The position numbers and the translations under genes were made by a program. A stretch of 32,218 bases of DNA from a virus (Duplodnaviria; Caudoviricetes), in IMG/VR virus record IMGVR_UViG_3300032305_000597, positions 1 through 32,218 of that record, one strand, 5' to 3'. Positions 4,515 through 18,760 of this stretch are shown one piece after another (the first letter of the stretch is position 1; each line of letters begins with the position of its first letter). The notes beneath the pieces are model-generated. The model was not told where the DNA came from. It saw only the letters and a program-made list of their open reading frames with translations, and made no database searches.

Positions 4515-6056
4515 TTACACTGTGTAGTACCGCTCTTTACTGCGGCTTCGAAACCATTGAATGTCTTCGGCCTCGTCTGTTGGCAGACGCAAGAACCCAC
4601 CTGCGCGAAAGCGCATCAACGCTAAAGTTGTGGCATCCACCAAGTCATCGTGCTCGCCTGATGGAAACGCAGCAATCTCGTCCACGAGCTCTTCAGCCCA
4701 ACGGGTTTTAGGTACCCATACTTTCCCAGACGCAATTATGTCCGAGACTGAGTTCAAACGGGCAATTTTGTCCTGACCTTTACTCGGCGTGTACTCCTGC
4801 ACTGGGATACCCATCGCCCGCAGTTCATAGATCAATGGCGCACCAGACGCCTTCTTCTCTATAAGAACACCATCGGGTTCGTACTCGGTGTACTCCTTGA
4901 GTACGTCCTTCTTTAGCTCCGGATACTCCACCCGTTTCTTATACGTGTTGAGAAGAATGATGTTCTTGGTGTTGTCTTTGTAATGAGTAAAAACTCCCCA
5001 CGTCGTCCCTGCTGAATAGTCAGCCCGTTGATTCTTTTCAAACGCTGTGTCCCATGTCTGGAGGATGTACTCGCACTCAGGAGGCTCATCTTCTTCCCAC
5101 CACTGCCACCAATCCCGCTTGACGATAGCCGACTCGTTACCTACGGGGTTCTGTTGGTACTGTGCCTGCCACTTGGCGTTCGGCAGTTCCTCCTGTAGCG
5201 CAGTAAGCTCCTCCATCGACCAGAACTCTGGCCATAAGGGTTTACCCGAAGGTAGAATAGCGGGGAACTCAATCACTTTCCACTGCTCACCACCCCGTTG
5301 CGCAGCTGCTTTGAGCACCTGACCTGTCAAATCTCGCAGTGCCCAGCGCGTCATCACGATTACAATCGCCCCGCCCGGCTGCAAACGCTGACGAGGACCT
5401 GACGTATACCACTCCGTGACCTTGTCGAACACATCCGAGTTGGTTGCGGCCATCGCCGCCTCTTGTTCTGAGTGTGGATCGTCAATAATCAGTAGGTCCG
5501 CACCCTTTCCCGTGACCGTACCACCCACACCAATCGCAAAATAGTCACCATTCTTGCTGGTGTTCCACCGGCCAGCCGCTTTTGAGTCCGCCCGCAGCTC
5601 CAAACTGGGGAAAAGGTCCTTGTAGACCTCCGAATCCACCAGATTTCGCACTTTTCGACCAAAACCAACCGCCAATTCAGCAGTATTTGAGCTCTGGATC
5701 ACCTTTTTATGCGGAAAACGGCCTAGAAACCAAGCGGGCAGCAAGTAACTCGCAAACTCTGACTTCGTATGACGCGGTGGCATGTTAATGATGAGGCGTT
5801 TACACGTCCCATTGGCCACTTCTTCGAACGCCTTGGCCATAATCTTGTGGTGACGCCCGCCTATGAACGTCGGCCAGACCTTATCTACGAACCCCATGAA
5901 CGTTTCGCGGGCCCGCTGCTTCTCAAACAGCTCATCCCGCTTGTCTAAGTCCGCCAACACCACAGCTTTCTGGGCATCCGTCAACTTCCCGAGGTTCGCT
6001 ATAAGCGATTTCAGCTCAGCGTCCATCTCCAGATGAGTTGTTTCACGCCGAGTCAT
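4515..6056 (-). CDS. terL: Terminase large subunit
   Basis: Walker A-like LIINMPPRHTKS, Walker B LLIIDDPH, coupling motif VMTRW, and nuclease acidic residues (QTWDTA, HDDLVDATT). Confidence 0.95.
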   Translation of the reverse strand: MTRRETTHLEMDAELKSLIANLGKLTDAQKAVVLADLDKRDELFEKQRARETFMGFVDKVWPTFIGGRHHKIMAKAFEEVANGTCKRLIINMPPRHTKSEFASYLLPAWFLGRFPHKKVIQSSNTAELAVGFGRKVRNLVDSEVYKDLFPSLELRADSKAAGRWNTSKNGDYFAIGVGGTVTGKGADLLIIDDPHSEQEAAMAATNSDVFDKVTEWYTSGPRQRLQPGGAIVIVMTRWALRDLTGQVLKAAAQRGGEQWKVIEFPAILPSGKPLWPEFWSMEELTALQEELPNAKWQAQYQQNPVGNESAIVKRDWWQWWEEDEPPECEYILQTWDTAFEKNQRADYSAGTTWGVFTHYKDNTKNIILLNTYKKRVEYPELKKDVLKEYTEYEPDGVLIEKKASGAPLIYELRAMGIPVQEYTPSKGQDKIARLNSVSDIIASGKVWVPKTRWAEELVDEIAAFPSGEHDDLVDATTLALMRFRAGGFLRLPTDEAEDIQWFRSRSKERYYTV

Positions 6057-6819
6057 GGTTTTCCTGAGCGGGCGTGGCGGGATAGGTGAGCAAATCTACC
6101 GTCGGAATGACAGGCACCTCCTCAACTACGTCGGGGCCAAACTCTGCATCCAAGTCAATGTCAATTGGAGTCACATCTGTAACCCCCTGCGCCATCAGCA
6201 TCTTGCGCACCTTGTCTTTGATCGCCGCGTCTAAATCGGACACGTTGTTGTATGTCACAGTAATCTCGGTCTTCTCGGAGAACAGGCCCACATCGCTGAT
6301 CTTGCCCAACATCTCTGTGGCCTTGATCTCAATGCGTGGGTCACCGCACGACGCCAAGTCCAGTAACTTGTTAGTAACTACTAACCTAAGCTGCGCCGCG
6401 TCTGCCACATACTCATTGTCGTATTCACGCAACATATTGCTTATACGGTCTGCTACGGGCAAGCTGTACAACGTGGGCGGATTTACTGTTGATGAGCTTG
6501 GTTGTGTAGTAACGTGAATCTTGCGGGGCCTGCCACGCCCGCGTTTCTCCGGCTCTTTGGGTGCTGGGGCGTCAGGTTTCATAGCCTGCTTGTATTGAGA
6601 CTCGATCAACGAGCTGAAGTCTTTGAAAATCTGGTCCGCGTGGTCTTGGGCTTCGGGTGCCTCGCCCGCTTCAGCGCCTAGCCCTTTTAGCAGCTCAGCT
6701 GTGTTTGCTGCAATCTGCATGTTCTCGCGCAAAGTCGAGGCCACCTCCGGTGTAAGGTCAGCCGGATACGGAATGGTCTTATCAATTTCGATATGTAATG
6801 TCATGGAGGAAGAAGGCAC
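6043..6819 (-). CDS. Putative terminase small subunit / DNA-binding packaging protein (true start may be ATG 6804)
   Basis: Immediately upstream of and overlapping terL. Contains a helical IKATEMLGK...VGLFSEK segment typical of small-terminase C-terminal regions and an AT-hook-like KRGRGRPRK. Confidence 0.65.
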   Translation of the reverse strand: MPSSSMTLHIEIDKTIPYPADLTPEVASTLRENMQIAANTAELLKGLGAEAGEAPEAQDHADQIFKDFSSLIESQYKQAMKPDAPAPKEPEKRGRGRPRKIHVTTQPSSSTVNPPTLYSLPVADRISNMLREYDNEYVADAAQLRLVVTNKLLDLASCGDPRIEIKATEMLGKISDVGLFSEKTEITVTYNNVSDLDAAIKDKVRKMLMAQGVTDVTPIDIDLDAEFGPDVVEEVPVIPTVDLLTYPATPAQENHDSA

Positions 6820-6837
6820 TCCAAAAAGAATAGCGCG

Positions 6838-6867
6838 ACTGTAGCAGAAATACTACGGGGTGTGCAA
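6838..6867 (-). promoter_or_regulatory. Possible sigma70-type promoter for the packaging/structural operon
   Basis: The minus strand reads TTGCAC-18 bp-TACAGT with an extended -10 TG (TGcTACAGT), just upstream of the GGAG RBS of the terS-like gene. Confidence 0.4.
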
Positions 6868-7157
6868 GAGGAGGTTGGGACTCCTACCCGGGGGCCTGCG
6901 GCAGGCTGGCGTTAGCGCAAACTTCTCCAAAATTTTAGATACCCCCCGGGGGGTCACGATTAAAAAGAGAAGGGGGGTGTTTTTAAATTGTTCTCATCCA
7001 ATGTGCAAAACACTGTGTGTGGTGTGCGGGTCCCCTCCGACGCGTACTTGGGGGGTGCCCGTACGGTGGGGGTCGAGATTTTTACTTTTACCAAGCCCGT
7101 AGTCGGCGGAGAAAGCGAAATTTTTTTTGTTCAGCCATGATCGCGTGAGGCAAAGCG

Positions 7158-7232
7158 GGCGTGGCCATATCGTCGCGCCCTGCGTAGGCGTGGCCACGTG
7201 ATCGCGCCCTGCTATACATTGGCTATACATTG
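7158..7232 (+). repeat. Direct repeats in the divergence region
   Basis: GGCGTGGCCA-N5-TCGCGCCCTGC at 7158-7183 and 7187-7212, then tandem GCTATACATTG x2 at 7211-7232. Confidence 0.85.
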
Positions 7233-7308
7233 TTGTGCGGTTTCCACCCATTATTTACCATGAGCGTATAGTTATAAACATGGAAGCAAGGCAGACACCT
7301 TGCGACCT

Positions 7309-7336
7309 GAGAAATCCGACAGATGTCGGATTGTTC
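7309..7336. repeat. Palindromic box copy 1 (variant with 2-bp centre)
   Basis: GAGAAAT-CCGACA-GA-TGTCGG-ATTGTTC, upstream of the RBS and ATG 7370. Confidence 0.85.
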
Positions 7337-7369
7337 GGCAATCATGCCAATCCTTTATTGGAGAATCAA

Positions 7370-8137
7370 ATGTCAAAAGCAAATCAAGCGGTCGCGCCCG
7401 TTCAAAGCGCAATCCCTGCAACTACCTTGGAGGTTGTTTGCGGTAAGTCTTTGGTCGAAGCTCAGGCTTCGCTCGAAGAAATTTTCTTGTCAACTGCCAA
7501 TGCTGAAAAGCAAATGGTGCGTGGCGAGGAAGCTCGTGACGCGGCTGACGCGTTGTTGTTGGACTGGGTGACACAATGGCATGAGGTCGATGGCAAGTTG
7601 GTCAAGATGCGCGCGCCTAAGCTGGACTCACTCGGCAACCCTGTGTTGCAAGACAATAAACCTGTGATGGTTTACGTGCCGATCTCTTACCCTGAGTACA
7701 AACAAGTGCTCGCGTGGGGTGTCGCTAAGTACTATGACGCGGGTGCGCCAACTGTTGACGCGGCTGAGCGTCAAGTGCAACGCCAATTTCAGCGCCTGCT
7801 GACCTTGGATTGGGTTCGACCTACTGCCAAAAATGCTGACGCTGAGCGCGTGGCAAAGCGGCGTGCGGCTGAGGCGGCTAAGTTCGCTGAAAAGTCTGAC
7901 GGCGAGTTGGCTGAGCAAAAAGCTGAGTTACTCGCGAAGGGTGACACCAAGTCGATTGCTCAGGCTCAGGCGGTGGCAAAAGAAATTGAGCGCCGCGAAA
8001 AGCCACAGATCGACGCGGCTCAATCTGCCCGCGTTGCGGTTCGTGACAAACTGATTGCCCGCGCGAAGGACTTGTGCAAAGCGGCAACCGCTGACGCTGA
8101 CGAAAAGTTGATTGCGGCTCTGCAAGCGCTTAGCTAA
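7370..8137 (+). CDS. Early hypothetical protein, Ala/Lys-rich helical (255 aa)
   Basis: ATG 7370 preceded by CTTTATTGGAGA RBS (the ORF-track start at 7235 is probably too early). First gene of the plus-strand block, followed by a terminator. Confidence 0.85.
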   Translation: MSKANQAVAPVQSAIPATTLEVVCGKSLVEAQASLEEIFLSTANAEKQMVRGEEARDAADALLLDWVTQWHEVDGKLVKMRAPKLDSLGNPVLQDNKPVMVYVPISYPEYKQVLAWGVAKYYDAGAPTVDAAERQVQRQFQRLLTLDWVRPTAKNADAERVAKRRAAEAAKFAEKSDGELAEQKAELLAKGDTKSIAQAQAVAKEIERREKPQIDAAQSARVAVRDKLIARAKDLCKAATADADEKLIAALQALS

Positions 8138-8148
8138 TCTGTAACCCT

Positions 8149-8184
8149 GCCCGCCGTGTTATGAGCATGGCGGGCTTTTTCTTT
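8149..8184 (+). terminator. Rho-independent terminator
   Basis: GCCCGCC...GGCGGGC stem followed by TTTTTCTTT, just after the stop at 8137. Confidence 0.8.
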
Positions 8185-8196
8185 ATTGGAGTTCCT

Positions 8197-8355
8197 ATGT
8201 CTTCTCGTTCTCTTGTGTTTATCGCGGGCTTCTTCGCCATGGTTATGTCCGTGCTCTGCGCCGTGGCTGGCGTGCTTTTGCCCGTCTGTCTGATTTACTT
8301 TGGTGTTTCGTTGCTGGTCATGATCGCGGTCTATCACGATCGTGACTTTGATTAA
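8197..8355 (+). CDS. Small membrane protein (52 aa, two hydrophobic segments)
   Basis: CTTTATTGGAG RBS and ATG 8197; MSSRSLVFIAGFFAMVMSVLCAVAGVLLPVCLIYFGVSLLVMIAVYHDRDFD. Confidence 0.7.
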   Translation: MSSRSLVFIAGFFAMVMSVLCAVAGVLLPVCLIYFGVSLLVMIAVYHDRDFD

Positions 8356-8359
8356 CCAT

Positions 8360-8379
8360 GCCCGCTTTGGCGGGCTTTT
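8360..8379 (+). terminator. Rho-independent terminator
   Basis: GCCCGC-TTTG-GCGGGC-TTTT directly after the stop at 8355. Confidence 0.7.
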
Positions 8380-8533
8380 GAAACCAGTCACCTGTGTTGA
8401 TACCAGTGGTGTCGTCAAGAAACGGGTTAGTCTTAGGAACGGGCTAGTCCTCGTTAGCGTGGCGGGCGGTGAACGGCGTCGCACACTAGGTTCTTATTAG
8501 ATACCAGTCACCAGAAGGAACGGGGTAGGACCC

Positions 8534-8562
8534 GAACAAACCGACAACGTGTCGGATTATTC
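8534..8562. repeat. Palindromic box copy 2
   Basis: GAACAAA-CCGACA-ACG-TGTCGG-ATTATTC in the long non-coding region. Confidence 0.9.
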
Positions 8563-8782
8563 TATTCTTTGTTATAGATTGATGCTCAAGGCCGCGTCGC
8601 CCGCCCACCAAGTGCGGGCGTGGTCAAGTTTAGATGCGGTAGGCATCGACTGTTGTATCTTAGCAACGCTAAATGTTATAAAACCCCCTTCATAACATAG
8701 GCTTGCTGTTGATTTCAACCCAGAGTCGATGAAACTACGAGTTAGTTTATCAAATAAAAGCCTCTCTTTTTTAAGCACTTCC

Positions 8783-9018
8783 CAACAACCATGCGGCTCT
8801 CAAGCCAGCGGGCGTGGTTTTACATAAAACATGTAAGATAGATATAACTTTTTTAGAGATAGAGAGAGGGGGGGAAAATTTACCTCGTTCCATGATCGGC
8901 TCAGTCTCTCCCTCGCTCTCCTCCGCTCCTCCCCGCTCCCTTCCTTTTACACTTCCCAAAAAGCTCTTCGCTATGTTTTATGTTGTATGTTAAACCCGCA
9001 CGGCCCGCATGGTTGTTG
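8783..9018. repeat. Nested long-range inverted repeats
   Basis: CAACAACCATGCGG (8783-8796) pairs perfectly with CCGCATGGTTGTTG (9005-9018), and ACATAAAACAT (8822-8832) with ATGTTTTATGT (8973-8983). They enclose a purine tract (about 8855-8874) and a pyrimidine tract (about 8905-8948). Confidence 0.8.
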
Positions 9019-9046
9019 ACAAGTACCCCAAATAGTTTGATAGAAT
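9016..9046 (+). promoter_or_regulatory. Possible sigma70 promoter (extended -10)
   Basis: TTGACA at 9016 and TGaTAGAAT ending at 9046. The 19-bp spacer is long, so it would depend on the extended -10. Confidence 0.4.
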
Positions 9047-9097
9047 AACTACGCATAACATATCCCCGTAGTGTTGTTTTATCAAAAGGAAATCACC

Positions 9098-9823
9098 ATG
9101 ACCCGCCCTACCAAGTACCGCGATGCAGACTCAATCTTCGCCAACTGCACGATCAGCAACGATTGCATCCTGTGGCCCCAGTCGAACAACCGCGTGCCTC
9201 TCTTTACAGTTTCATCACCCATCGCTAAACAATTCGCCACAACCTCCATCGCCCGCGTTGTCTTTACCATCTGTCGGTTCGTGCCCGCCTCGCAACGTCT
9301 GACCCGCTGGTGTACATCGGACTTCTGCATCAACCCCTACCATCACGCTGAGTCACGCCCATACCAAGAGAAGCGCAAGAAGCTGTTCAACATCCATGAC
9401 GAACTGCCCGAGCAGACATCGCACCGACATCTGATCGCCCCAAGTGATGAGGAGCTCGACCGCATGAAGCCAACGGACCCAACCATCTGCAACGTGCTCA
9501 TGCGCTCAGCCGCGACCGCTGGTCATGACGCCCGTGGATTGCCCAACCGCCGATTCTTGGGCTTCCCCACCAAAGGGTATGAGGGTATGCCCTTACTACC
9601 TGAAGGCGAGAACACCGCCAAGGAGAACGTACCTGTGCTCATCATCAAGAAGAAGCCTGTGGTGGAGCCAACGGTCACGGCCCCGAAGAGCGAGTACGAG
9701 GACATGAGTACAGATGAATTCTTCGACGTGCTTGATGCCAAATTCGGCAAGATGATCGAGAAGGACAAGGAGAAACCGTTCGTAGATCACACAAAGCACC
9801 TTGTGCGGAACTCGTACCGCTAA
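9098..9823 (+). CDS. Hypothetical protein with degenerate HNH-like N-terminal domain
   Basis: AAGGA RBS and ATG 9098. DCILWP...RWCTSDFCINPYH resembles the phage HNH signature C-W-W...H-x-C-x4-C-[VI]NP-x-H. Confidence 0.65.
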   Translation: MTRPTKYRDADSIFANCTISNDCILWPQSNNRVPLFTVSSPIAKQFATTSIARVVFTICRFVPASQRLTRWCTSDFCINPYHHAESRPYQEKRKKLFNIHDELPEQTSHRHLIAPSDEELDRMKPTDPTICNVLMRSAATAGHDARGLPNRRFLGFPTKGYEGMPLLPEGENTAKENVPVLIIKKKPVVEPTVTAPKSEYEDMSTDEFFDVLDAKFGKMIEKDKEKPFVDHTKHLVRNSYR

Positions 9824-9837
9824 ACGCGAACACGGAC

Positions 9838-9866
9838 TTGACAAAGTCTAATTTGTATGGTATAAT
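9838..9866 (+). promoter_or_regulatory. Strong sigma70 promoter, copy A
   Basis: Perfect TTGACA-17 bp-TATAAT with an extended -10 TG. Confidence 0.92.
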
Positions 9867-9922
9867 CTACTTTAGTAGATTTGGTTGAGGTTGATAATAA
9901 ACCTTCCGTTCTACTAGACGGC

Positions 9923-9951
9923 GAACTATCCGACACGGTGTCGGGTTGTTC
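9923..9951. repeat. Palindromic box copy 3
   Basis: GAACTAT-CCGACA-CGG-TGTCGG-GTTGTTC, upstream of the RBS and ATG 9978. Confidence 0.92.
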
Positions 9952-9977
9952 AGTAACCCCCTTTATTGGAGACCATC

Positions 9978-10235
9978 ATGTACACAGCACAACGCACCAC
10001 CCTCTGCTTGCCCAACAAGGGCTTGCGCAACTGCAACACCCACCAAGGTGTTGACCACTTCCTACGCACCGAGTATCGGGTTGATACCTACCACGTGCAG
10101 AACCTCGAGTACCTCGATCGTGGCTACGACTTCGATGAGTTCAAAGACATCGACAACGAGTACGAGGGCTTGACCATTGTTGAGCCGCTCAACGAGGTTG
10201 AGTTGTATCAGTTCCTCAACGGCTACAACCTGTAA
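9978..10235 (+). CDS. Acidic hypothetical protein (85 aa)
   Basis: CTTTATTGGAGA RBS, ATG 9978, downstream of promoter A. Confidence 0.8.
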   Translation: MYTAQRTTLCLPNKGLRNCNTHQGVDHFLRTEYRVDTYHVQNLEYLDRGYDFDEFKDIDNEYEGLTIVEPLNEVELYQFLNGYNL

Positions 10236-10244
10236 GGACTGACC

Positions 10245-10466
10245 ATGCAACTCAGATCAGCTAACTTCTCTACGGCGGGCGTGGCCCCGAAGTGCAACCC
10301 CATCATCATCGCGCTCGACCGCAAATGGCGCGAAATCTATCGTGCGCCGCTCAACCAAATAGACGGCATGGCGAACGCGGTCCGCAACGACTACGAGGCG
10401 GGGCATCGCGGCATACGTATTAACACTACGTCCATCAAAGTGTTTGCTTGGGCAACGCCGAACTAA
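10245..10466 (+). CDS. Hypothetical protein (73 aa)
   Basis: AAGGA RBS; its TAA stop lies inside box copy 4. Confidence 0.75.
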   Translation: MQLRSANFSTAGVAPKCNPIIIALDRKWREIYRAPLNQIDGMANAVRNDYEAGHRGIRINTTSIKVFAWATPN

Positions 10467-10488
10467 CCGACGGCCTGTCGCATTGTTC
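10460..10488. repeat. Palindromic box copy 4
   Basis: GAACTAA-CCGACG-GCC-TGTCGC-ATTGTTC; contains the upstream stop codon and is followed by a GGAGA RBS. Confidence 0.85.
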
Positions 10489-10504
10489 TATTCTGGAGAA
10501 TCAC

Positions 10505-10744
10505 ATGAAACGATCACCCCACAAAACCATTCACGTCAAACGCGCCACATTGACTAGCTATTTTGCTGGTCCCGCGATTGGTAAGAGGCCACGGCCCAAG
10601 TCATTTGCGGACTGGAAGTACGAACGCGCATTGGCTAAGTTGGCACGAACCAAACCTAACAGGCTAAGGGTTGGTCTTGTGCGTGCAATGACAGGCAACC
10701 CCTTTTTCTTCAACGGCGCACACGTTGGCGCAGAGAACGACTAA
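10505..10744 (+). CDS. Basic hypothetical protein (79 aa)
   Basis: GGAGA RBS, ATG 10505 (MKRSPHK...), very K/R-rich. Confidence 0.72.
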   Translation: MKRSPHKTIHVKRATLTSYFAGPAIGKRPRPKSFADWKYERALAKLARTKPNRLRVGLVRAMTGNPFFFNGAHVGAEND

Positions 10745-10752
10745 GGTGCGTC

Positions 10753-11043
10753 ATGGCTAAACCCAAACGAATCTTGGTCTCGCCCGCACAGTATGCGGAT
10801 ATACGCTCACTCGCCAACCTGACGGGCATTGATGAGCAGGAAGTCAAGGACGCCTATATGAAGTCGTTTATGGGTGACATGAACGTGTTCGACATATTGC
10901 AGCCATACCTCGCGCTAGCTGAGGCAGACAGGCAGGGGTGGGAGTACACCCCGATCTTCTGGCATCGAACGGATGACGGCGTGTTGCATCTGACGATGTG
11001 GGACATGGATAAGCCCGACCCGAACTCATGGACCAAACCATGA
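10753..11043 (+). CDS. Hypothetical protein (96 aa)
   Basis: AAGGTG RBS and tight packing with neighbouring genes. Confidence 0.78.
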   Translation: MAKPKRILVSPAQYADIRSLANLTGIDEQEVKDAYMKSFMGDMNVFDILQPYLALAEADRQGWEYTPIFWHRTDDGVLHLTMWDMDKPDPNSWTKP

Positions 11044-11051
11044 ACAGGGAC

Positions 11052-11080
11052 TTGACAAAGTCTAATTTGTATGGTATAAT
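11052..11080 (+). promoter_or_regulatory. Strong sigma70 promoter, copy B (identical core to copy A)
   Basis: TTGACA-AAGTCTAATTTGTATGG-TATAAT, identical to 9838-9866. Confidence 0.92.
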
Positions 11081-11117
11081 CTACCTTGGTAGATTCGATA
11101 GTACAAGTAAGTATTCA

Positions 11118-11146
11118 GAACTTACCGACACCATGTCGGGTTGTTC
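11118..11146. repeat. Palindromic box copy 5
   Basis: GAACTTA-CCGACA-CCA-TGTCGG-GTTGTTC, followed by an AAGGAG RBS. Confidence 0.92.
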
Positions 11147-11163
11147 ACAACAAGGAGAAGGCT

Positions 11164-11400
11164 ATGAGCTTTGATCTTGACTGGCGCAGTTGCACCGCTT
11201 GCGGTGATGACATGCGTGTGGAGCGTTGGAACCTTGGGTTCCGCCTCTGCCTAACATGCGGCGAACAAGCCGCAGTATCTGACCGCGCATCTTGGTGCGT
11301 AGTGCAACCGTATGGGAAGGGCCCATACATGCTCGTGACTTCAGCGTCTGCCCGTCAGACTGTGATGGACACGAATCAGAAGCAAACCCGCTCAAACTAA
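11164..11400 (+). CDS. C4 zinc-finger protein, DksA/TraR-finger-like (78 aa)
   Basis: CTACGDDMRVERWNLGFRLCLTCGE resembles the CxxCG-x-I-xxxR...LCxxC pattern. AAGGAG RBS and ATG 11164. Confidence 0.7.
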   Translation: MSFDLDWRSCTACGDDMRVERWNLGFRLCLTCGEQAAVSDRASWCVVQPYGKGPYMLVTSASARQTVMDTNQKQTRSN

Positions 11401-11422
11401 CCGACATGATGTCGGATTGTTC
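11394..11422. repeat. Palindromic box copy 6
   Basis: AAACTAA-CCGACA-TGA-TGTCGG-ATTGTTC; contains the upstream stop codon (11398-11400). Confidence 0.92.
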
Positions 11423-11445
11423 AACCTACTTATCTAGGATTTCAA

Positions 11446-12528
11446 ATGTCTTCTAAAGAACTCTCGTTTACCCGCCGCGTCAACTTCACCGAGACAGTTG
11501 ACCTGCTTCTCAATGCGGGGCACAACTCAATACACCTTACTGGCGAACCAGGTGTTGGTAAGACCGCGATCCAAGATGTGCTTGTGGAACGCACAGGCTA
11601 TCACAAGGTGTACATCGACGGCCCCAACACCGATGTGGGTCAGGCTGGTATGCCAATCCCCAACCACGAGACCCGCACGCTGGACTTCTATCCCGCCGCC
11701 AACTATCGACTGCACACCAACGAGCCGTGCATCATCATGATCGACGAGTGGACCAAGACTGATGACTATGTGCGCAACACCCTGCACCCGCTCCTGCACG
11801 AGCGCCGACTTGGTGAATTCCGTGTGCACCCTGACACTATCGTGTTCACCACGGGCAACAACGATGCCGATGGTGTTGGTGATTCCGCGAAGGCTCATAC
11901 CCGTAACCGTCAAACGTGGCTGACATACATGAAGCCGACGGCTGACGAGTGGCTGGTCTGGGCGGGCAATGCGGGCGTGGCCCCCGAGATCATGGCGTGG
12001 GTGAAGGAGTACCCACATTGCATGGCGTCTTACATGGACGGCGGTCAGAAGGACAACCCTTACATCTTCAACCCAACTGACGCATCGCAGGTCGCGTTCG
12101 TGTCGCCTCGTTCGTTGTACAAGGCGTCGCATTGGGTCAATGTCCGTCAACGTATCTCAGAGAATAGCTTGATCGCGTCTCTTGACGGCACATTGGGCTT
12201 CTCCGCATCGCGGGACTTGCAGGCATACATCGCCTTGGCTGATCAGCTACCAACGCGTGAGGCTATCGAGAACAGCCCCGACACCGCGCCTATCCCGACT
12301 AGCCCTGCGGCTCTTTGCATCCTTGCGTTCAAAGGCGTGGCCGTGTGCACACGTGAGTCGTTCGCAACGTGGCTACGCTACATCAAGCGTATGCCCAAAG
12401 AGACCCAAGCCGTGTTCATCAACTCCCTCTTGGAGATTAAGGACAAGAAGCAGTGGGCTATGTCGCACCCTTCTTTCGTAACGTGGGCTCGTGAGAACCA
12501 GTACATGTTCGCGGGCTTGAAGGGGTAA
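11446..12528 (+). CDS. MoxR/dynein-related AAA+ ATPase
   Basis: Walker A GEPGVGKT, Walker B IIMIDE, sensor TTGN and an SPRS motif; lies near a VWA gene. Confidence 0.88.
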   Translation: MSSKELSFTRRVNFTETVDLLLNAGHNSIHLTGEPGVGKTAIQDVLVERTGYHKVYIDGPNTDVGQAGMPIPNHETRTLDFYPAANYRLHTNEPCIIMIDEWTKTDDYVRNTLHPLLHERRLGEFRVHPDTIVFTTGNNDADGVGDSAKAHTRNRQTWLTYMKPTADEWLVWAGNAGVAPEIMAWVKEYPHCMASYMDGGQKDNPYIFNPTDASQVAFVSPRSLYKASHWVNVRQRISENSLIASLDGTLGFSASRDLQAYIALADQLPTREAIENSPDTAPIPTSPAALCILAFKGVAVCTRESFATWLRYIKRMPKETQAVFINSLLEIKDKKQWAMSHPSFVTWARENQYMFAGLKG

Positions 12529-12530
12529 GC

Positions 12531-12797
12531 ATGAGAGATTCAATGAAACGACTGATCGAGGAAGCGGGCGGTACTGTCTTACTGGACGGCGCTCTGGTGC
12601 AGTTCGGCGAGGAAGCGTTCGACCTTATGTTCCTCCAAATCTACGAAGCGGGCATGGACCAAGCCGCGAAGCTGTGCTACGACTACGGCGAGTTCAAGGA
12701 CAGCGATGAGGTGCGCAGTTGCGTAGCGTTGATTCTGCACAACATTAAACATCCCGACACGGTGTCGGATAGTTCAGGAGGTAACGATGGACGATGA
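12531..12797 (+). CDS. Hypothetical protein (88 aa)
   Basis: ATG just after the AAA stop with an AGGGG RBS; its C-terminus reads through box copy 7. Confidence 0.7.
   Translation: MRDSMKRLIEEAGGTVLLDGALVQFGEEAFDLMFLQIYEAGMDQAAKLCYDYGEFKDSDEVRSCVALILHNIKHPDTVSDSSGGNDGR
12747..12775. repeat. Palindromic box copy 7
   Basis: AAACATC-CCGACA-CGG-TGTCGG-ATAGTTC, immediately followed by AGGAGG. Confidence 0.9.
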
Positions 12798-12879
12798 TGA
12801 TATTTCTTATTTGTTTGGGGTGCTGATCGTGGTCGCGTTGATCACGCTTGGCTTGGACATAACTATTTGGAGACCATGA
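12787..12879 (+). CDS. Small single-pass membrane peptide (30 aa), below the ORF-track cutoff
   Basis: Perfect AGGAGG RBS. MDDDDISYLFGVLIVVALITLGLDITIWRP; the stop overlaps the next start (ATGA). Confidence 0.75.
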   Translation: MDDDDISYLFGVLIVVALITLGLDITIWRP

Positions 12880-14114
12880 TGCTAGTAAAAGCTAAGTTAG
12901 CCGCTGAGAAGCGGGTCGAGTTGGTACACGTGAGCCTGATGCGTGCGCCTGAGTTCGCGTTGTTCGCTGGTCTCTTTATGGTGGGTAAGATCACCATCGA
13001 GGACGCGCCGATGACTGCGGCTACCAACGGGCGTGACGCGTTCTACGGTAGGGCGTTCGTAGATAGCTTAACGGACAAGGAGTTGGCCTTTCTCGTTATG
13101 CACGAGAACATGCACAAGTGTTACCGACACTTGACTACATGGCGGGCGTTGTATGAACTCGACAAGAGTTGTGCCAACCAAGCGTGTGACTACGTCATCA
13201 ACATTCAGTTGCGTGACATGGACGAGCACGGCAAGTACATCGTCATGCCTACTGACAAGGACACAGGCAAGCCTATCGGTCTGATCGACGAGAAGTATCG
13301 GGGCATGGACACCAAGCAGGTCTTCGACATCTTGCGTAAGGAGAAGCAAGAGAAGAAATGCGGCGGTGAACAAACCGACGGCGAGTCGGGAAGTTCGGAC
13401 GGGCATGGCGCTGGCCTTGATGAGCACGACTGGGACGGGGCGCAGGACGGCATGACCAAGGAGGAGCAAGAGCAACTCGGGCGTGACATCGACCAAGCCC
13501 TGCGGCAAGGCGGTATCTACGCGGGCAAGGTTGGCGGCAACATGCCACGTGAGATCGGTGAACTCTTGAAGCCCAAGGTCAACTGGCGTGAAGTCTTGCG
13601 CAGGTTCGTACGTACTTCGCTGAAGGACCGCGACTCCGTGTCGTGGCGTAGGGCGCACAAGAACTATCTGTGGCAGGACATCATCTTGCCAAGCATCATG
13701 GGCAAGCGTGTTAAGCACCTAGTGATCGCGATGGACACATCGGGTTCGATACAAGGTCCGATACTGACTGAGTTCCTATCCGAGATGAACGGCATCGTGC
13801 GTGACACAGGCGCTGACCGCGTGGACGTTGTGTACTGGGACACAGAGATAGCTGGTCACGAGATTCACAAGGGCAGCAACAAGGACATTGTTCACAGGAC
13901 CAACCCCAAGGGTGGCGGTGGCACGGACCCTGACTGCGTGGTGGACTTCATGACTGGGCAGGACTTCAAGCCTGACGCGCTGATCATGTTGACCGATGGC
14001 TACATGCACACCAACAAGCCCAAGTGGGCGGCGATCAAGACGCCGACTCTGTGGTGCGTGATTGGCAACGAGAAGTACGAGGTGCCCAATGGTCAGAAGC
14101 TCAACATTAACTGA
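12876..14114 (+). CDS. Metallopeptidase-like (HExxH) plus VWA domain protein, DUF2201-type
   Basis: HENMH zinc-binding motif and NQACDYVIN in the N-terminal part; C-terminal MIDAS DTSGS...GGGT...LTDG. GGAGA RBS before ATG 12876. Confidence 0.88.
   Translation: MMLVKAKLAAEKRVELVHVSLMRAPEFALFAGLFMVGKITIEDAPMTAATNGRDAFYGRAFVDSLTDKELAFLVMHENMHKCYRHLTTWRALYELDKSCANQACDYVINIQLRDMDEHGKYIVMPTDKDTGKPIGLIDEKYRGMDTKQVFDILRKEKQEKKCGGEQTDGESGSSDGHGAGLDEHDWDGAQDGMTKEEQEQLGRDIDQALRQGGIYAGKVGGNMPREIGELLKPKVNWREVLRRFVRTSLKDRDSVSWRRAHKNYLWQDIILPSIMGKRVKHLVIAMDTSGSIQGPILTEFLSEMNGIVRDTGADRVDVVYWDTEIAGHEIHKGSNKDIVHRTNPKGGGGTDPDCVVDFMTGQDFKPDALIMLTDGYMHTNKPKWAAIKTPTLWCVIGNEKYEVPNGQKLNIN
13368..13396. repeat. Palindromic box copy 8 (intragenic, degenerate)
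   Basis: GAACAAA-CCGACG-GCG-AGTCGG-GAAGTTC, inside the low-complexity linker (EQTDGESGSS) of the VWA protein. Confidence 0.75.
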
Positions 14115-14493
14115 AGAGGTCCTGATCAACCACATTGTTCACACTAACACGGTGGGCGGTGAGGGCGTGACGAACTTCGTGATGGGGTTGAACCCTGCGG
14201 GCATGGCGCTCATCAAGAGCCTCGACCCCGAGGTGATCTTCCGAGATAGGTTCTACCACAACTCGTGGGCTAAGCAGGCGATGCACCATTCTCGCGTAAC
14301 GCAAGATGAACTACGTGATGTGAGCGGGTTCGGCAAGCTATACGAGTGGATGGTTGAAGAGGCCGCCGTCAAGGGTGCAAACACGTTCGTGCGCACCATG
14401 TTGTTGACGGGGCTTCCGTACTGCGTATATGTGGAAGAGGATAGCCCACTCGTGGGTTGGTTTTATGTACTAGGAGTAACAAATCATGATTGA
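14089..14493 (+). CDS. Hypothetical protein (about 134 aa; start uncertain)
   Basis: Fills the gap between the VWA gene and the next ORF; ATG 14089 has GAGG upstream. Confidence 0.65.
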   Translation: MVRSSTLTEEVLINHIVHTNTVGGEGVTNFVMGLNPAGMALIKSLDPEVIFRDRFYHNSWAKQAMHHSRVTQDELRDVSGFGKLYEWMVEEAAVKGANTFVRTMLLTGLPYCVYVEEDSPLVGWFYVLGVTNHD

Positions 14494-14758
14494 AGAAGAT
14501 GTGATGTTGTGCATCGGTAGCAACAGAGTGCTGATGTCACCTGAAGAAGCGTTCAAGATATGCGAGATCATCAATGGCTCGTCGCGTATAGGTACGTCAT
14601 GGCACACCAAGGGTGGCAAGGACGGCAAAGGCGGTAGCTTGGAAGTGGTGTCGCCGCCAACGCACGATACGTTCATAGCCTACGTTGTACCCATGACTGG
14701 GCTACTGCGTATGAAGTTGGACAGCAACGAGAAATTTTTAAAGGAGGAATCAAGATGA
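14486..14758 (+). CDS. Hypothetical protein (90 aa)
   Basis: AGGAG RBS; overlaps both neighbours. Confidence 0.8.
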   Translation: MIEEDVMLCIGSNRVLMSPEEAFKICEIINGSSRIGTSWHTKGGKDGKGGSLEVVSPPTHDTFIAYVVPMTGLLRMKLDSNEKFLKEESR

Positions 14759-14925
14759 AACATATACCGCAACAACAGCACGGGTACAGCGTGACCCTTA
14801 ACAAAGAAACGTACGACCTTCTTCTGATGGTCAAGGGTTCTCTTGTGGAACAGTTAGGGTTCGAGCCGACAAACGGGCAAGTGGTACGCCATTTGATCGC
14901 TGTCTTTTTCAACGAAACAAACTAA
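14755..14925 (+). CDS. Putative ribbon-helix-helix DNA-binding protein (56 aa), below the ORF-track cutoff
   Basis: AGGAGG RBS and ATGA overlap. MKHIPQQQHGYSVTLNKETYDLLLMVKGSLVEQLGFEPTNGQVVRHLIAVFFNETN shows an alternating beta strand, helix, Gly turn and TxxxVVRxLI helix. The stop lies in box copy 9. Confidence 0.65.
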   Translation: MKHIPQQQHGYSVTLNKETYDLLLMVKGSLVEQLGFEPTNGQVVRHLIAVFFNETN

Positions 14926-14947
14926 CCGACAACCTGTCGGAATGTTC
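14919..14947. repeat. Palindromic box copy 9
   Basis: AAACTAA-CCGACA-ACC-TGTCGG-AATGTTC; contains the upstream stop and is immediately followed by AGGAG. Confidence 0.92.
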
Positions 14948-14958
14948 AGGAGAATCCT

Positions 14959-15156
14959 ATGCCTCTAGTTGTCGTAGATGGAGTGGTCTTATACCGCTGC
15001 CCTAAGAAGGAAGAACTGCCCATGATCGGTAGTGCCTACCTTGAAAACCCGCTTCTCGCTATCAAAGCGCGTGAGAAGCATTGCCTTGAGTTGTCTTACT
15101 CAATGGCCCTCTTACAGAAATCTTTATTGGAAGGAAAGAAAAATGACATGGTGTAA
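14959..15156 (+). CDS. Hypothetical protein (65 aa)
   Basis: AGGAG RBS directly after box 9. Confidence 0.75.
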   Translation: MPLVVVDGVVLYRCPKKEELPMIGSAYLENPLLAIKAREKHCLELSYSMALLQKSLLEGKKNDMV

Positions 15157-16159
15157 CACAGCAGAAGTCCCTACGCTTGGCTCGTTTGCGCAGGCCAAGG
15201 CACGGTTTGAGAATACCAAGCCTATCCGTGGTAACAAAGACAAGGTGCGCCCATTGGGTAACCGCAACAAACATCGCATGGCTAGCTTCGATATGCCTGA
15301 CGCCGACACAGTCGTACTCAAGTATTACGGCGAGCCGTTCGTAACGTGGCGATCAGATGACTCGTTCTCTGTTACCAACAGCGTGTACAACTCATCGTTC
15401 AGCGCTAGGCACTTGCCTTACTTTCTGCCTACGCGTTGGGCAACTAATTGGAACGCGTGTCGTATGACGATTGGTAACAAGGGCAAGTACTACTTGTTTC
15501 CCAAGGGTGAGACGCTTCACTTCGTTAAGGCGGGCGATGACTTCGAGCTGGTCAACAAGCCTGTGGCTTACGCCATACGTAAGCGTCGCGGGTCTGATCG
15601 CACGATACTAGCTAAGTGTGCGCCGTTCTTCGACTGGTTGACTGTGGTGTCAGCTGTGAACAACAGCTTGACAGAGGAAGAGACCAAGCACGCCATAAAT
15701 TTGATGCGTGAGCAGGTGGGTCTTCAGCATACAGAGTGGTATCAAAAGCGAGTGCAGGAGATGTATACGGACGCGAGTATTACAACGCAGGACAAAGAAA
15801 AGCGGTACGCCGACTACCGCATGATTGATTCGCTGCCTTTTAATTGCAAGTACACACACCTCTCGGCTCGATCGTTTCATACGGCATCGTGTGAGCGTAT
15901 CTTGCAATGGGTCGAAGACGACAACGCTGAGAACTGGGTGTTGGCTATGAACTTAATAGCCGAACGCGCAGGGAATCGGCGCTACAAAAACAACAGCATC
16001 CAATACGATCTTAGCGTTGAGCAAGCGACTAAGTTTATGGCAGAGATAGCTCGTCACGTACATCGTGACTCTATCTTCTACAACGAGCAACTGGAAGACG
16101 GCGTAGTGCCGACCCGTAGCAATGCTGTCTACTTACGTAGCTTCAGCTTTTCCCTTTGA
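15143..16159 (+). CDS. Hypothetical protein (338 aa)
   Basis: Long ORF with a probable start at ATG 15143 (MTWCNT) after GGAAGGA; the stop overlaps box 10. Confidence 0.85.
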   Translation: MTWCNTAEVPTLGSFAQAKARFENTKPIRGNKDKVRPLGNRNKHRMASFDMPDADTVVLKYYGEPFVTWRSDDSFSVTNSVYNSSFSARHLPYFLPTRWATNWNACRMTIGNKGKYYLFPKGETLHFVKAGDDFELVNKPVAYAIRKRRGSDRTILAKCAPFFDWLTVVSAVNNSLTEEETKHAINLMREQVGLQHTEWYQKRVQEMYTDASITTQDKEKRYADYRMIDSLPFNCKYTHLSARSFHTASCERILQWVEDDNAENWVLAMNLIAERAGNRRYKNNSIQYDLSVEQATKFMAEIARHVHRDSIFYNEQLEDGVVPTRSNAVYLRSFSFSL

Positions 16160-16186
16160 ACATACCGACACGGTGTCGGATTGTTC
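16158..16186. repeat. Palindromic box copy 10
   Basis: GAACATA-CCGACA-CGG-TGTCGG-ATTGTTC; the upstream TGA overlaps its first bases. Confidence 0.92.
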
Positions 16187-16217
16187 TTTATCAACCTGTG
16201 TATTTAAGGAAATCAAA

Positions 16218-16496
16218 ATGGCTAAGAAACTAAACAAGAGCATCGAGTGGATGACTCTCCGCGCACGTCACGCCGCAATGGGCCGTACTGTGTTGCAACT
16301 GCTTGCTAACCCTGAGTCCAAGGCGTCAGACATAAGCGCCGCCGCTGAGATGTACCGCGAGGCAACCACCATCCTTGAGACTGAGTACGCGACGCTCAGC
16401 AAAACCATCAAGGGTACTTACCTGCCTGTGCTGACGCATCGCGGTAAAACACACCAAAAAGTAATTATCCGTCACAAACCCAGAACTAATGTTTGA
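16218..16496 (+). CDS. Hypothetical protein (92 aa)
   Basis: AAGGA RBS, ATG 16218 (MAKKLNK...). Confidence 0.75.
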   Translation: MAKKLNKSIEWMTLRARHAAMGRTVLQLLANPESKASDISAAAEMYREATTILETEYATLSKTIKGTYLPVLTHRGKTHQKVIIRHKPRTNV

Positions 16497-16506
16497 GGAA
16501 CACACC

Positions 16507-17385
16507 ATGCTAGAGAATACGATGATCGCACCCCCAGTATCCCTGTCGTCGATGGCTATGCTAGTCGAGCTACGCATCAGCACATGGACTGCGCGTAAGC
16601 GTGACAAGGACACAACCACCGCCCTGAACAACGAGAAGGAAGCATCGCAGGATGCTAGCTCTGTGTACAAGTACCTCATGGCGGGCAGTGACCACCTCGA
16701 CAAGATCGAGAAGTATGCGGCCAAGTGTCGTCAATGGAATTCACAGCAGACCCTGCCGTGGATGAAAGGTGTTGGACTGCTGCCGATGAATAACTTCTTC
16801 TCGTATCGTGAGCAACTCGGAACGATGGAGGCTAACTTCTCCGCGCTAGTCTCCGACTTCATCATCGCGTACCCCAACCTTGTGAGTGCGCAAGCCTTCA
16901 AGCTAGGTAAGTACTTCAACGCTGACGAGTTCCCCGATGTGAACACTATGCCCAAGCGGTTCAAGTTTGAGTTCAACTTCCTACCTGTGCCTGAGAAGGG
17001 TGACTTCAGGATGCAATGCGAAGAGCGTGTGCGTCTTGACTTAGCAGAGCAGTACGAGAAGATGTACAACGACAAGCTGGCTGAAGCTATGCGTGACCCG
17101 TGGGAGCGACTGCATGAGTTGTTGTCTAAGATGAGTGAGACATTGACTGATTCACCTGACGGCAAGCGCCGCGTGTTCCGCGACACCATCGTGACCAACG
17201 CCGTAAGCCTGTGCGACTTGCTCTCGCGTCTTAACGTGACTAACGACCCCAAGCTAGAGGAGGCACGCCGTATGCTGGAGAGATCGGTGGTGAGCATCGA
17301 CGCAGATGACCTGCGCACAATCCCGAGCGCCCGCGCTGAACTCAAGAGTAGCGTGGACGACATCATTAACAAATTCAACTGGTGA
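16507..17385 (+). CDS. Conserved phage hypothetical protein, DUF3150-like
   Basis: GAGGA RBS before ATG 16507. LVELRISTWTARKRD, TLPW...GLLP and LNVTNDPKLE resemble a family often found near phage AAA/VWA pairs; the family name is tentative. Confidence 0.6.
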   Translation: MLENTMIAPPVSLSSMAMLVELRISTWTARKRDKDTTTALNNEKEASQDASSVYKYLMAGSDHLDKIEKYAAKCRQWNSQQTLPWMKGVGLLPMNNFFSYREQLGTMEANFSALVSDFIIAYPNLVSAQAFKLGKYFNADEFPDVNTMPKRFKFEFNFLPVPEKGDFRMQCEERVRLDLAEQYEKMYNDKLAEAMRDPWERLHELLSKMSETLTDSPDGKRRVFRDTIVTNAVSLCDLLSRLNVTNDPKLEEARRMLERSVVSIDADDLRTIPSARAELKSSVDDIINKFNW

Positions 17386-18275
17386 TACATATGAACAACT
17401 TTGTAAACATACGTTTACCCGACAACCTACTGATTGACCCGAACCTCAAGGTGCTTGTCGATAAGCTAGCAATCGATAACCCTAAGTGGGTCTTCGCTCC
17501 GCGTAAAGGTGGGCGTGAGATACACCAAAAATCTGTCAACTTCAAGTTCAGCGCAAGCGAAGAAACGCAGAAGGCTAACACCGCGCCTGAAGGGTTTAGC
17601 TTCGTACGCGCTATTCACGTATCGCAAGATGGTGAGCAGTTGGGTGTACTACATGTAGACAACCAGTACAATCGTAGCCGCGAGCAGACTTGGCACTACG
17701 GTGTGCAGTCGTGGCGCGTGGAGAAGTCGCGTGGTGATCGCAATACTACGTACACTACCAAGATGGACATGGCTATACGGCACGTGAAGAAGACATTCAA
17801 ACCCATGGACCACAACGAGACGTATACCAAAGCGGTAGACGCTATATATAAACAGTTCCAAGATGCCTTGCGTAACCTTACGGACCCTATCCGTAATATG
17901 CGCCTTATCAAGAGTGCTGTAGGACTACAAGCCTATGCACTAGCTAAGGCTATGGGTGAACCTATCTTGTCACCTGATCTGACGGAGATAGAGCGTCAAC
18001 TGCAATCAGCGACCTACAAGCAAGCAATGGGTGAATACTTCTTGGCAAGAGATATGGCGGCGGCTCAGGATAAGCAACTGACTGTTGTCGTAGCCTTGGG
18101 TAACAACCAGTACTTGTTTAAGGACGCGGAGTACGAGTTGCATTGCGCTGACTTTGATACGCTACCTGAGCGTATGCAGAACAACCTTAGTGTGATGCAC
18201 CTGATGCAGGACAACGAGGTGGTGCAAGACGTTGGGTACAGATACAACGACACACACTTCTACATACACAAGTAA
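17382..18275 (+). CDS. Hypothetical protein (about 295 aa; start GTG 17382 or ATG 17391)
   Basis: Long ORF overlapping the previous stop; last gene before a terminator. Confidence 0.85.
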   Translation: MIHMNNFVNIRLPDNLLIDPNLKVLVDKLAIDNPKWVFAPRKGGREIHQKSVNFKFSASEETQKANTAPEGFSFVRAIHVSQDGEQLGVLHVDNQYNRSREQTWHYGVQSWRVEKSRGDRNTTYTTKMDMAIRHVKKTFKPMDHNETYTKAVDAIYKQFQDALRNLTDPIRNMRLIKSAVGLQAYALAKAMGEPILSPDLTEIERQLQSATYKQAMGEYFLARDMAAAQDKQLTVVVALGNNQYLFKDAEYELHCADFDTLPERMQNNLSVMHLMQDNEVVQDVGYRYNDTHFYIHK

Positions 18276-18293
18276 TAATAAACACTCTACTTT

Positions 18294-18319
18294 GACCCGC
18301 CTCGTGCGGGTCTTTTTTT
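18294..18319 (+). terminator. Rho-independent terminator ending the early region
   Basis: GACCCGC-CTCGT-GCGGGTC followed by a T7 run. Confidence 0.92.
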
Positions 18320-18328
18320 GTCTATACT

Positions 18329-18357
18329 GAACATACCGACACCGTGTCGTATTGTTC
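18329..18357. repeat. Palindromic box copy 11
   Basis: GAACATA-CCGACA-CCG-TGTCGT-ATTGTTC, between the terminator and the replication-operon promoter. Confidence 0.9.
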
Positions 18358-18393
18358 GACTAGGGGTAAGTGTTTCCCCCTATAAAATAATTC

Positions 18394-18421
18394 TTGACAC
18401 AGTCTAGTTTAACCCTACAAT
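18394..18421 (+). promoter_or_regulatory. Sigma70 promoter of the replication operon
   Basis: TTGACA-16 bp-TACAAT with an AT-rich upstream element, shortly before ATG 18434. Confidence 0.7.
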
Positions 18422-18433
18422 AGGTATACCGAA

Positions 18434-18760
18434 ATGGCAGCTACACCTGAGAAGAAGGTCAAGGATAAAGTAACAGCGGTCTTGCGAAAGCATGGTGCGT
18501 ACTACTTCTTCCCCGCAACTTACGGCATGGGTAGAGCTGGTGTCCCCGACATTATCGCGTGCTTCAATGGGCTCTTCATAGCCATCGAGTGCAAGGCGGG
18601 CAAGGGGAAGACAACGGCATTACAAGATAGAGAACTCGCGGCGATCAAACAAGCAGGCGGTATCTCTACAGTCATAAACGAAACCAACATAGAGTTGGTA
18701 GACAAAATTTTATCAGAGGTGAATCATGCTAAAGAAATTATTGAGGGCCCCGCTCCCTGA
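18434..18760 (+). CDS. VRR-NUC / PD-(D/E)XK nuclease (Holliday-junction resolvase-like)
   Basis: PEKKVK...GVPDIIAC...FIAIECKAG...TALQ...I..AGG motif set. Confidence 0.88.
   Translation: MAATPEKKVKDKVTAVLRKHGAYYFFPATYGMGRAGVPDIIACFNGLFIAIECKAGKGKTTALQDRELAAIKQAGGISTVINETNIELVDKILSEVNHAKEIIEGPAP

Follow-up and report, generated by a model that had tools for sequence, protein, structure and literature searches.

In the window analysed here, the 32,218 nucleotides of the IMG/VR virus record IMGVR_UViG_3300032305_000597 (Duplodnaviria; Caudoviricetes), 29-bp interrupted palindromes (named boxes) punctuate the early region of the genome of an uncultured freshwater phage. Comparison with related phages indicates that the protein encoded by the first early gene very probably binds the box, because the box bases change in step with the residues of this protein (named the candidate binder). 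Judged from sequence, repression is probably the job of the candidate binder, and we moderately favour a role in which it shuts off the early arm, its own gene included, in the manner of stoperators. The candidate binder family and its residue-to-base recognition code are the new elements of this work.

The initial annotation had listed eleven box copies. Ten of them are intact 29-bp boxes at the listed starts, with zero to two mismatches (Table 1), whereas the copy at 7309 is damaged, being 28 bp long with a 2-base centre and GAGA as its left outer arm. Changes at 7311/7312/7316 in the strains of runs X2-X5 restore GAAC in this arm. The consensus search gave no match in any of 100 dinucleotide shuffles of the window. 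With a symmetric position weight matrix, the ten boxes score 35-45 bits, the damaged copy 3.6 bits and the best other site -5.8, leaving a gap of about 40 bits between the intact boxes and the next site in the window. The proposed confinement to the early region was borne out: the ten intact boxes lie at 8534-18357 in addition to the 7309 copy, none occurs elsewhere in the window, and the 5-9 matches in each of five complete related genomes are all clustered inside one early block of about 10 kb rather than spread evenly. The two arms match in base frequencies, in agreement with the symmetry first described; the outer gaps, which had been taken as variable, are A/T-rich and not free.

The exact box pattern was found at 17 loci on 15 viral contigs, one identical to the window, and 14 of the 15 contigs are relatives with boxes at matching positions. 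Via the AAA ATPase, 21 loci were reached, and those missed by the window matrix were searched de novo for palindromes, which yielded 5-9 copies each with the same 4-3-6-3-6-3-4 geometry (L045 excepted). Five half-site versions were identified among the relatives, namely A (GAAC..CCGACA, as in the window), B (GAAC..TCGAA), C (GGAA..TCGACA), D (GGAC..TCGACA) and E (GAAC..CCAACA). Of 33 distinct VWA genes, 30 carry a box in the linker of the reading frame; two frame registers occur, and the box is always of the version found in its own genome. This score was reached by 0 of 50 codon shuffles. The distant relative L045 (AAA 42%) carries another palindrome, GGACAA.GTGAC-N5-GTCAC.TTGTCC, in two copies (4990-5018 and about 5243) at the post-early position, and a binder homologue was not found in its 42%-complete record. 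One type-C match in L298, with neither phage-family genes nor a binder, is probably due to chance. Literature searches (supplements not covered) gave no account of the motif or the protein, consistent with the initial annotation, which did not recognise the motif as a described element.

A total of 50 distinct binder homologues were collected, and co-variation was analysed in 44 genomes, with four loci lacking a box, one locus with a single odd site and L017 omitted, over 4536 alignment columns in 17 shared proteins (16-17 further proteins served for comparison with the candidate binder). Only one column separates C from A at base 4, namely residue 165 of the candidate binder, which is R in 24 genomes and K in 20. 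Residue 161 (M/V/I versus K) separates A from G at base 2 as one of 27 such columns, and R142E marks the inner GAA version (base 12) as one of 15. Counted by half-sites in the 44 genomes, K161 goes with G in 258 of 258 and M/V/I161 with A in 210 of 218; C at base 4 accompanies R165 in 238 of 266 and K165 in 4 of 210; E142 goes with A in 44 of 44 and R142 with C in 431 of 432. For base 10, no single recognition residue passes, and pairs of residues follow the base instead: K134/E137 with G (416/416), R134/E137 with A (40/40) and the R134/Q137 of the window with G (20/20).

The three rules were also read in 11 extra loci, comprising nine of 15 metagenome loci together with L253 and L017, the last of which was known before the rules were set; five near-duplicates and L233, where no box was found, were dropped. 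The base 2 rule held in 18 of 18 (K) and 23 of 26 (M/V/I) half-sites, C stood at base 4 in 27 of 34 with R165 and in none of 10 with K165, and the base 12 rule held in 8 of 8 (E) and 24 of 24 (R). Seven changes of box version are needed on the portal and AAA trees and five on the tree of the candidate binder, the minimum being four; a type-D genome is sister to a type-C genome, and a type-B genome to a type-A one. The terminase of L017 is unalignable to that of the window, and four type-A boxes surround its binder homologue, which was detected at E 9e-9 by a hidden Markov model (HMM) built without L017. One of these boxes lies 8 bp before the -35 of the binder gene.

Other early proteins were considered as binders. 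The initial annotation had pointed to ribbon-helix-helix (RHH) and helix-turn-helix (HTH) proteins, a suggestion that is not favoured: none of the 51 columns of the RHH-like protein co-varies with the box, unlike the first early gene product. No base-4 column was found in this protein (14755), the HNH-like protein (9098), the zinc-ribbon protein (11164), or the AAA, VWA and DUF3150 proteins, which were thus rejected. The RHH-like protein (14755-14925, 56 amino acids), presumably of this fold as judged by eye, is 53-93% conserved in the relatives and has no Pfam match. The conserved protein at 9098-9823, likewise with no Pfam match, contains a C-x4-C-x-N-P-x-H motif with Trp at the position of the catalytic His, which we take to resemble the zinc-binding loops of HNH proteins.

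The AlphaFold2 model of the candidate binder is helical, with a predicted local distance difference test (pLDDT) score of 86 and a predicted template modelling (pTM) score of 0.53. A homodimer is predicted, with a model score of 0.81 against 0.00 for the best of three controls; of the solved pairs, 20 of 30 attain the dimer mark, as does 1 of 23 single chains. The dimer runs agree with one another in at least 93% of contacts, with pLDDT at least 80, and the interface is formed by helix 28-66. This N-terminal dimer helix is followed by helix 129-144 (carrying R138 and R142), an R-P-K segment (150-152), helix 156-171 (carrying R160 and residues 161 and 165) and a C-terminal helical bundle. The chain order from the dimer core onwards would match the order of the half-site from its centre through the inner 6 bp and the A/T gap to the outer 4 bp. 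The R-P-K segment resembles minor-groove linkers, and the Arg and Lys residues resemble those making guanine contacts. The single-sequence fold of the L043 homologue is poor (pLDDT 53). A VIA fold search reached a best Z of 6.2; its matches were short hairpins of helices within residues 157-255, and it hardly covered the N-terminal half.

The binder gene appears to form a separate transcription unit, with a promoter-like element, a leader box and a terminator. The element gives a single high-scoring match per genome in the window, G001, G003 and G004. The region upstream of the gene (7234-7283) has a good -10 without a -35, with the conserved TGTG[G/C][G/A]G about 26 bp before the -10, and may need an activator or another sigma factor. 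In many relatives, an intact box stands about 35-47 bp before the start codon. Among 25 boxes behind consensus sigma-70 promoters, seven start at +29 to +33, 17 at +44 to +53 and one at +74; the 24 of the first two groups start beyond the polymerase footprint. In 15 genomes, the last box precedes the -35 of the replication promoter by 13-47 bp and keeps no constant helical phase relative to it. These placements fit a roadblock with negative feedback better than promoter occlusion or activation, and operators or elongation roadblocks appear the best-fitting of the options first offered.

According to the proposed mechanism, the predicted dimer of the first early protein would bind the palindromes along the early arm and damp its own gene, via the leader box, as well as the early genes further downstream, chiefly by standing in the way of host RNA polymerase during elongation. 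The read-out would be bipartite: helix 129-144 would read the inner 6 bp, the R-P-K linker would cross the A/T-rich gap, and helix 156-171 would read the outer 4 bp. The five site versions may then represent immunity-like specificity classes, so that a phage entering a cell already infected by a member of its own class would be silenced. The wholesale re-spelling of boxes between close relatives suggests an escape from cross-repression. More tentatively, a new dimeric DNA-binding family with a modular one-residue-one-base code might give phages without integrase and partition genes a repressor-operator immunity. A resident phage would silence the early arm of same-class latecomers, or hold itself dormant without integrating, and relatives would evade it by changing two or three residues and, along with them, the spelling of all ten sites.

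Several observations weigh against the binder assignment and its proposed role. For two of the three rules, the residue change falls together with a split between clades; the base-4 rule alone singles out the protein, and it reflects a small number of independent switches, with two origins of type D on the portal and AAA trees. The box sites were partly picked with seed patterns and kin share residues, and this choice of seeds sharpens the tallies. The column test extended to the ends of the fetched flanks, beyond which lie the XRE HTH protein at 25863 and the virion proteins. In L233 (gene 314-979), no box of a known type was found in 1.3 kb; the first recognition helix of this homologue is divergent, and it may define a sixth box version. 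The autoregulatory copy of the window itself (7309) is the damaged one. For 22 binder homologues, Pfam and PHROGs gave nothing consistent; for the candidate binder, PDB sequences gave nothing below E 0.035, and Foldseek returned no match at E≤0.001 among PDB and viral structures. Concerning the role, only one of the 25 promoters examined overlaps a box, and the relatives lack a box in the 200 bp that follow the strong promoter ahead of gene 9098. The box past the terminator and the box beside the A/T-rich stretch are unexplained by roadblocking and, together with the box-free promoter of gene 9098, leave room for an architectural role.

Such an architectural role of the same binder, which we consider unlikely as its main purpose, would have dimers, perhaps bridged by their long C-terminal helices, loop the early arm every 1.3 kb or so. 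The DNA that enters first, or the replication origin, would in this way be organised, protected or tethered, with secondary effects on transcription. The median box spacing of 1306 bp over 165 intervals, the box retained in the VWA frame, and the positions of one box past a terminator and another flanking an A/T-rich run among short repeats are consistent with it, and the authors of the Cluster O study argue, in the part of their account considered here, that their palindromes serve something besides the control of initiation (PMC4351075). However, the tight +30/+50 spacing after promoters and the presence of a leader box at the binder gene speak against it, the boxes of L017 cluster round the gene and its -35 without tiling the region, and the switching of specificity is easier to explain by cross-repression. 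It is improbable that the same binder acts positively, by activating the replication-gene promoter or aiding polymerase read-through of the early arm. In each of the 15 genomes with both elements identified, the last box does precede the replication promoter, and the L017 box precedes a -35, but the distance to the -35 varies without a fixed phase, the early promoters already match 11-12 of 12 consensus positions, and the block holds just two strong terminators.

Slightly less probable still is another reader of the box, such as a host regulator or a phage protein like the XRE HTH before the primase, with the first early protein co-varying by linkage. The XRE HTH was reached in only three loci, outside the column test, and linkage within the early arm is strong; nevertheless, the neighbouring early proteins show no base-4 column, and the binder gene and the box occur together in L017. 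A scan of bacterial genomes (41 of 64 parts, with an exact 18-base pattern) gave single sites only, with no multi-copy host array and no site of a host regulator seen. Of the 120 bacterial loci, 68 share one ParB-like family with a palindrome in or beside the gene, and the remaining ones are mostly perfect terminator-like hairpins. The palindrome of these 68 loci (among L047-L166), AAC-TTC-CCGACA-N3-TGTCGG-GAA-GTT, is perfect and similar in geometry to the box. The loci of the ParB-like family are mostly elements of gut Clostridia with ParA, relaxase and serine recombinase nearby; at L068:3001-3027 the palindrome lies inside the ParB reading frame (2559-3407, minus strand). This palindrome is probably a self-encoded parS that has no relation to the binder of the phage.

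For the box as an RNA or single-strand hairpin, deviations from the consensus of each genome itself were scored at 187 distinct sites. Among 190 deviating arm positions, 131 break pairing, 46 give G-U pairs and 13 are compensatory, and pairing across the outer gaps, at 218 instances, falls below the 248 expected by chance. Because the changes are not compensatory, the box is read as double-stranded DNA, which supports the early view of a site for a symmetric protein in a dedicated, region-wide system. Conversely, the suggested RNA processing or stabilising stems are not supported by these counts, and the proposed analogy to N4 hairpin promoters finds no selection for a paired stem. Rfam covariance models gave one chance match only (E 0.22) in 6800-18700; a phage single-subunit RNA polymerase (PF00940) was found in none of the five complete relatives, where no control gave signal, and no RNA polymerase match occurs among 54 G004 proteins or 41 window proteins. 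In the same five genomes, where the controls gave signal, tyrosine integrase (PF00589), resolvase (PF00239), ParB (PF02195) and ParA (PF13614) were all missing, leaving the ParB centromere reading of the boxes without its proteins as well. Recombination sites, another early suggestion, are not supported either, as the junctions of gene gain and loss between related strains do not run from box to box. Although boxes overlap stop codons, attC-like cassettes were rejected because genes are gained and lost without flanking boxes. Hairpins and recombination sites together thus form the least likely explanation, a very improbable one, even though the boxes can fold (-6.6 to -13.7 kcal/mol), many stand at gene junctions and G-U-type changes outnumber A-C-type ones (43 versus 24). 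The box lying outside the transcript also speaks against RNA hairpins.

Among known systems, the stoperators of Cluster A phages (L5 gp71, TipsytheTRex) are described, in the portions of the reports drawn on here, as asymmetric 13-mers that are read by a monomer, oriented with transcription and distributed genome-wide in temperate phages (PMC9283540, PMC6550527). The repressor of that system combines an N-terminal HTH with a stoperator domain and, when bound, stops elongation. As far as those accounts go, the likenesses are that a single phage protein has many sites, placed at promoters and in short intergenic gaps, the two DNA-reading modules per chain (here inferred), and the joint divergence of site and protein among relatives. 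In contrast, the sites described here are 29-bp palindromes for a predicted dimer, restricted to the early arm, with no HTH family match in searches that a distant fold may have escaped, and in phages without integrase or ParAB. The box system would work like Cluster A stoperators without being a member, because Cluster A sites are asymmetric, monomer-read and carried by temperate phages. The nearest case in integrase-free phages is that of the Cluster O mycobacteriophages, for which the available part of the report gives a 17-bp dyad of no known function, TGTTCGG-N3-CCGAACA, with a dimeric binder proposed (PMC4351075). Within that description, both systems share a palindrome with a 3-bp centre, many copies, some of them intragenic, and their occurrence in phages without integrase or parAB. 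Theirs comprises more than 30 invariant genome-wide copies with a single 7-bp arm and no named binder, whereas here there are about ten degenerate bipartite copies on one arm, with another sequence and a named candidate binder.

Systems of temperate phages are less close. Repressor c of the Streptomyces phage phiC31 is a single repressor acting on conserved inverted repeats dispersed in the early region; the dispersed early-region palindromes are alike, unlike the temperate lifestyle and the integrase of phiC31. The family of this repressor (PF25746) had an Atlas feature score of 0.78 for the candidate binder, with 107 of 256 features, which is at chance level and below the lead level, and hmmscan of the 22 binder homologues gave no match to it. 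A lambda cI/LexA type differs in that the S24 peptidase (PF00717), with controls giving signal, was found in none of the five complete relatives, and boxes scarcely overlap promoters.

In the window, a 51%-complete virus record, the terminase, portal and GroES genes run leftwards, and the early genes followed by the replication genes run rightwards. The window portal is 41-48% identical to those of HTVC023P-type podoviruses, the nearest cultured genome type, and of several freshwater isolates. GroES, a family-A polymerase and the lack of an integrase are shared with the HTVC023P type, phages that the consulted part of their report describes as lytic (10.1101/2019.12.14.876532), and the window phage is apparently lytic too. 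In contrast to the window, no binder homologue was found in cultured phages, nor in plasmids, where distant homologues may be missed; the HMM likewise found none in the fetched parts of five cultured distant relatives, whose de novo palindrome scan was swamped by base composition. Related freshwater phages measure about 64 kb, the five complete ones spanning 63.6-65.8 kb. A module of AAA ATPase, DUF2201 metallopeptidase/VWA and DUF3150 genes occupies 11446-17385, and the matching arm of the cultured phage Pag-Yong1 likewise carries an ATPase and a VWA-like gene. The interval separating terS from the first early gene contains, at 7158-7212, a 26-bp sequence in two tandem copies, or in three for runs X2 and X4, together with G/C tracts, and is a possible packaging or genome-end site. 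The long, mostly non-coding stretch at 8140-9070 contains recurring AACGG(G/C/A)(G/C/T)TAG and ATACCAGT words, G+C-rich hairpins and an A/T-rich run beside box 2, a style kept across the relatives, and is a candidate replication origin or structured RNA.

Table 1 Boxes and transcription signals of the early region in the window.
Feature	Position	Strand	Remarks
Promoter-like element of binder gene	7234..7272	+	conserved, non-consensus; TGTG[G/C][G/A]G ... CC ... TATAGT; from upstream-region alignment; function inferred
Damaged box	7309..7336	.	about +30 from inferred binder-transcript start, 33 bp before ATG; candidate autoregulatory operator
First early gene	7370..8137	+	candidate box-binding protein, 255 amino acids
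Intrinsic-terminator-like hairpin	8149..8185	+	closes the binder gene's own transcription unit
Box 2	8534..8562	.	long non-coding stretch; adjoins A/T-rich run
Sigma-70 promoter	9838..9866	+	perfect, 12/12
Box 3	9923..9951	.	about +51 from 9838 promoter
Box 4	10460..10488	.	gene junction
Sigma-70 promoter	11052..11080	+	perfect, 12/12
Box 5	11118..11146	.	about +32 from 11052 promoter
Box 6	11394..11422	.	precedes AAA ATPase gene
Box 7	12747..12775	.	
Box 8	13368..13396	.	within linker of DUF2201 metallopeptidase/VWA reading frame
Box 9	14919..14947	.	overlaps stop of RHH-like gene
Box 10	16158..16186	.	
Intrinsic-terminator-like hairpin	18294..18319	+	ends early block
Box 11	18329..18357	.	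past 18294 terminator, 36 bp before -35 of replication-gene promoter
Sigma-70 promoter	18394..18421	+	11/12; nuclease / DNA polymerase A operon

For the dispersed palindrome arrays of phages without an integrase, published for Cluster O, a binder has been missing; a specific, small, uncharacterised protein with three residue-to-base rules can now be tested. If true, the assignment would add a DNA-binding family without a known fold match, reveal the co-evolution of repressor and operator in apparently lytic freshwater phages, and provide at least five natural protein-site pairs of differing specificity for study or as orthogonal switches.

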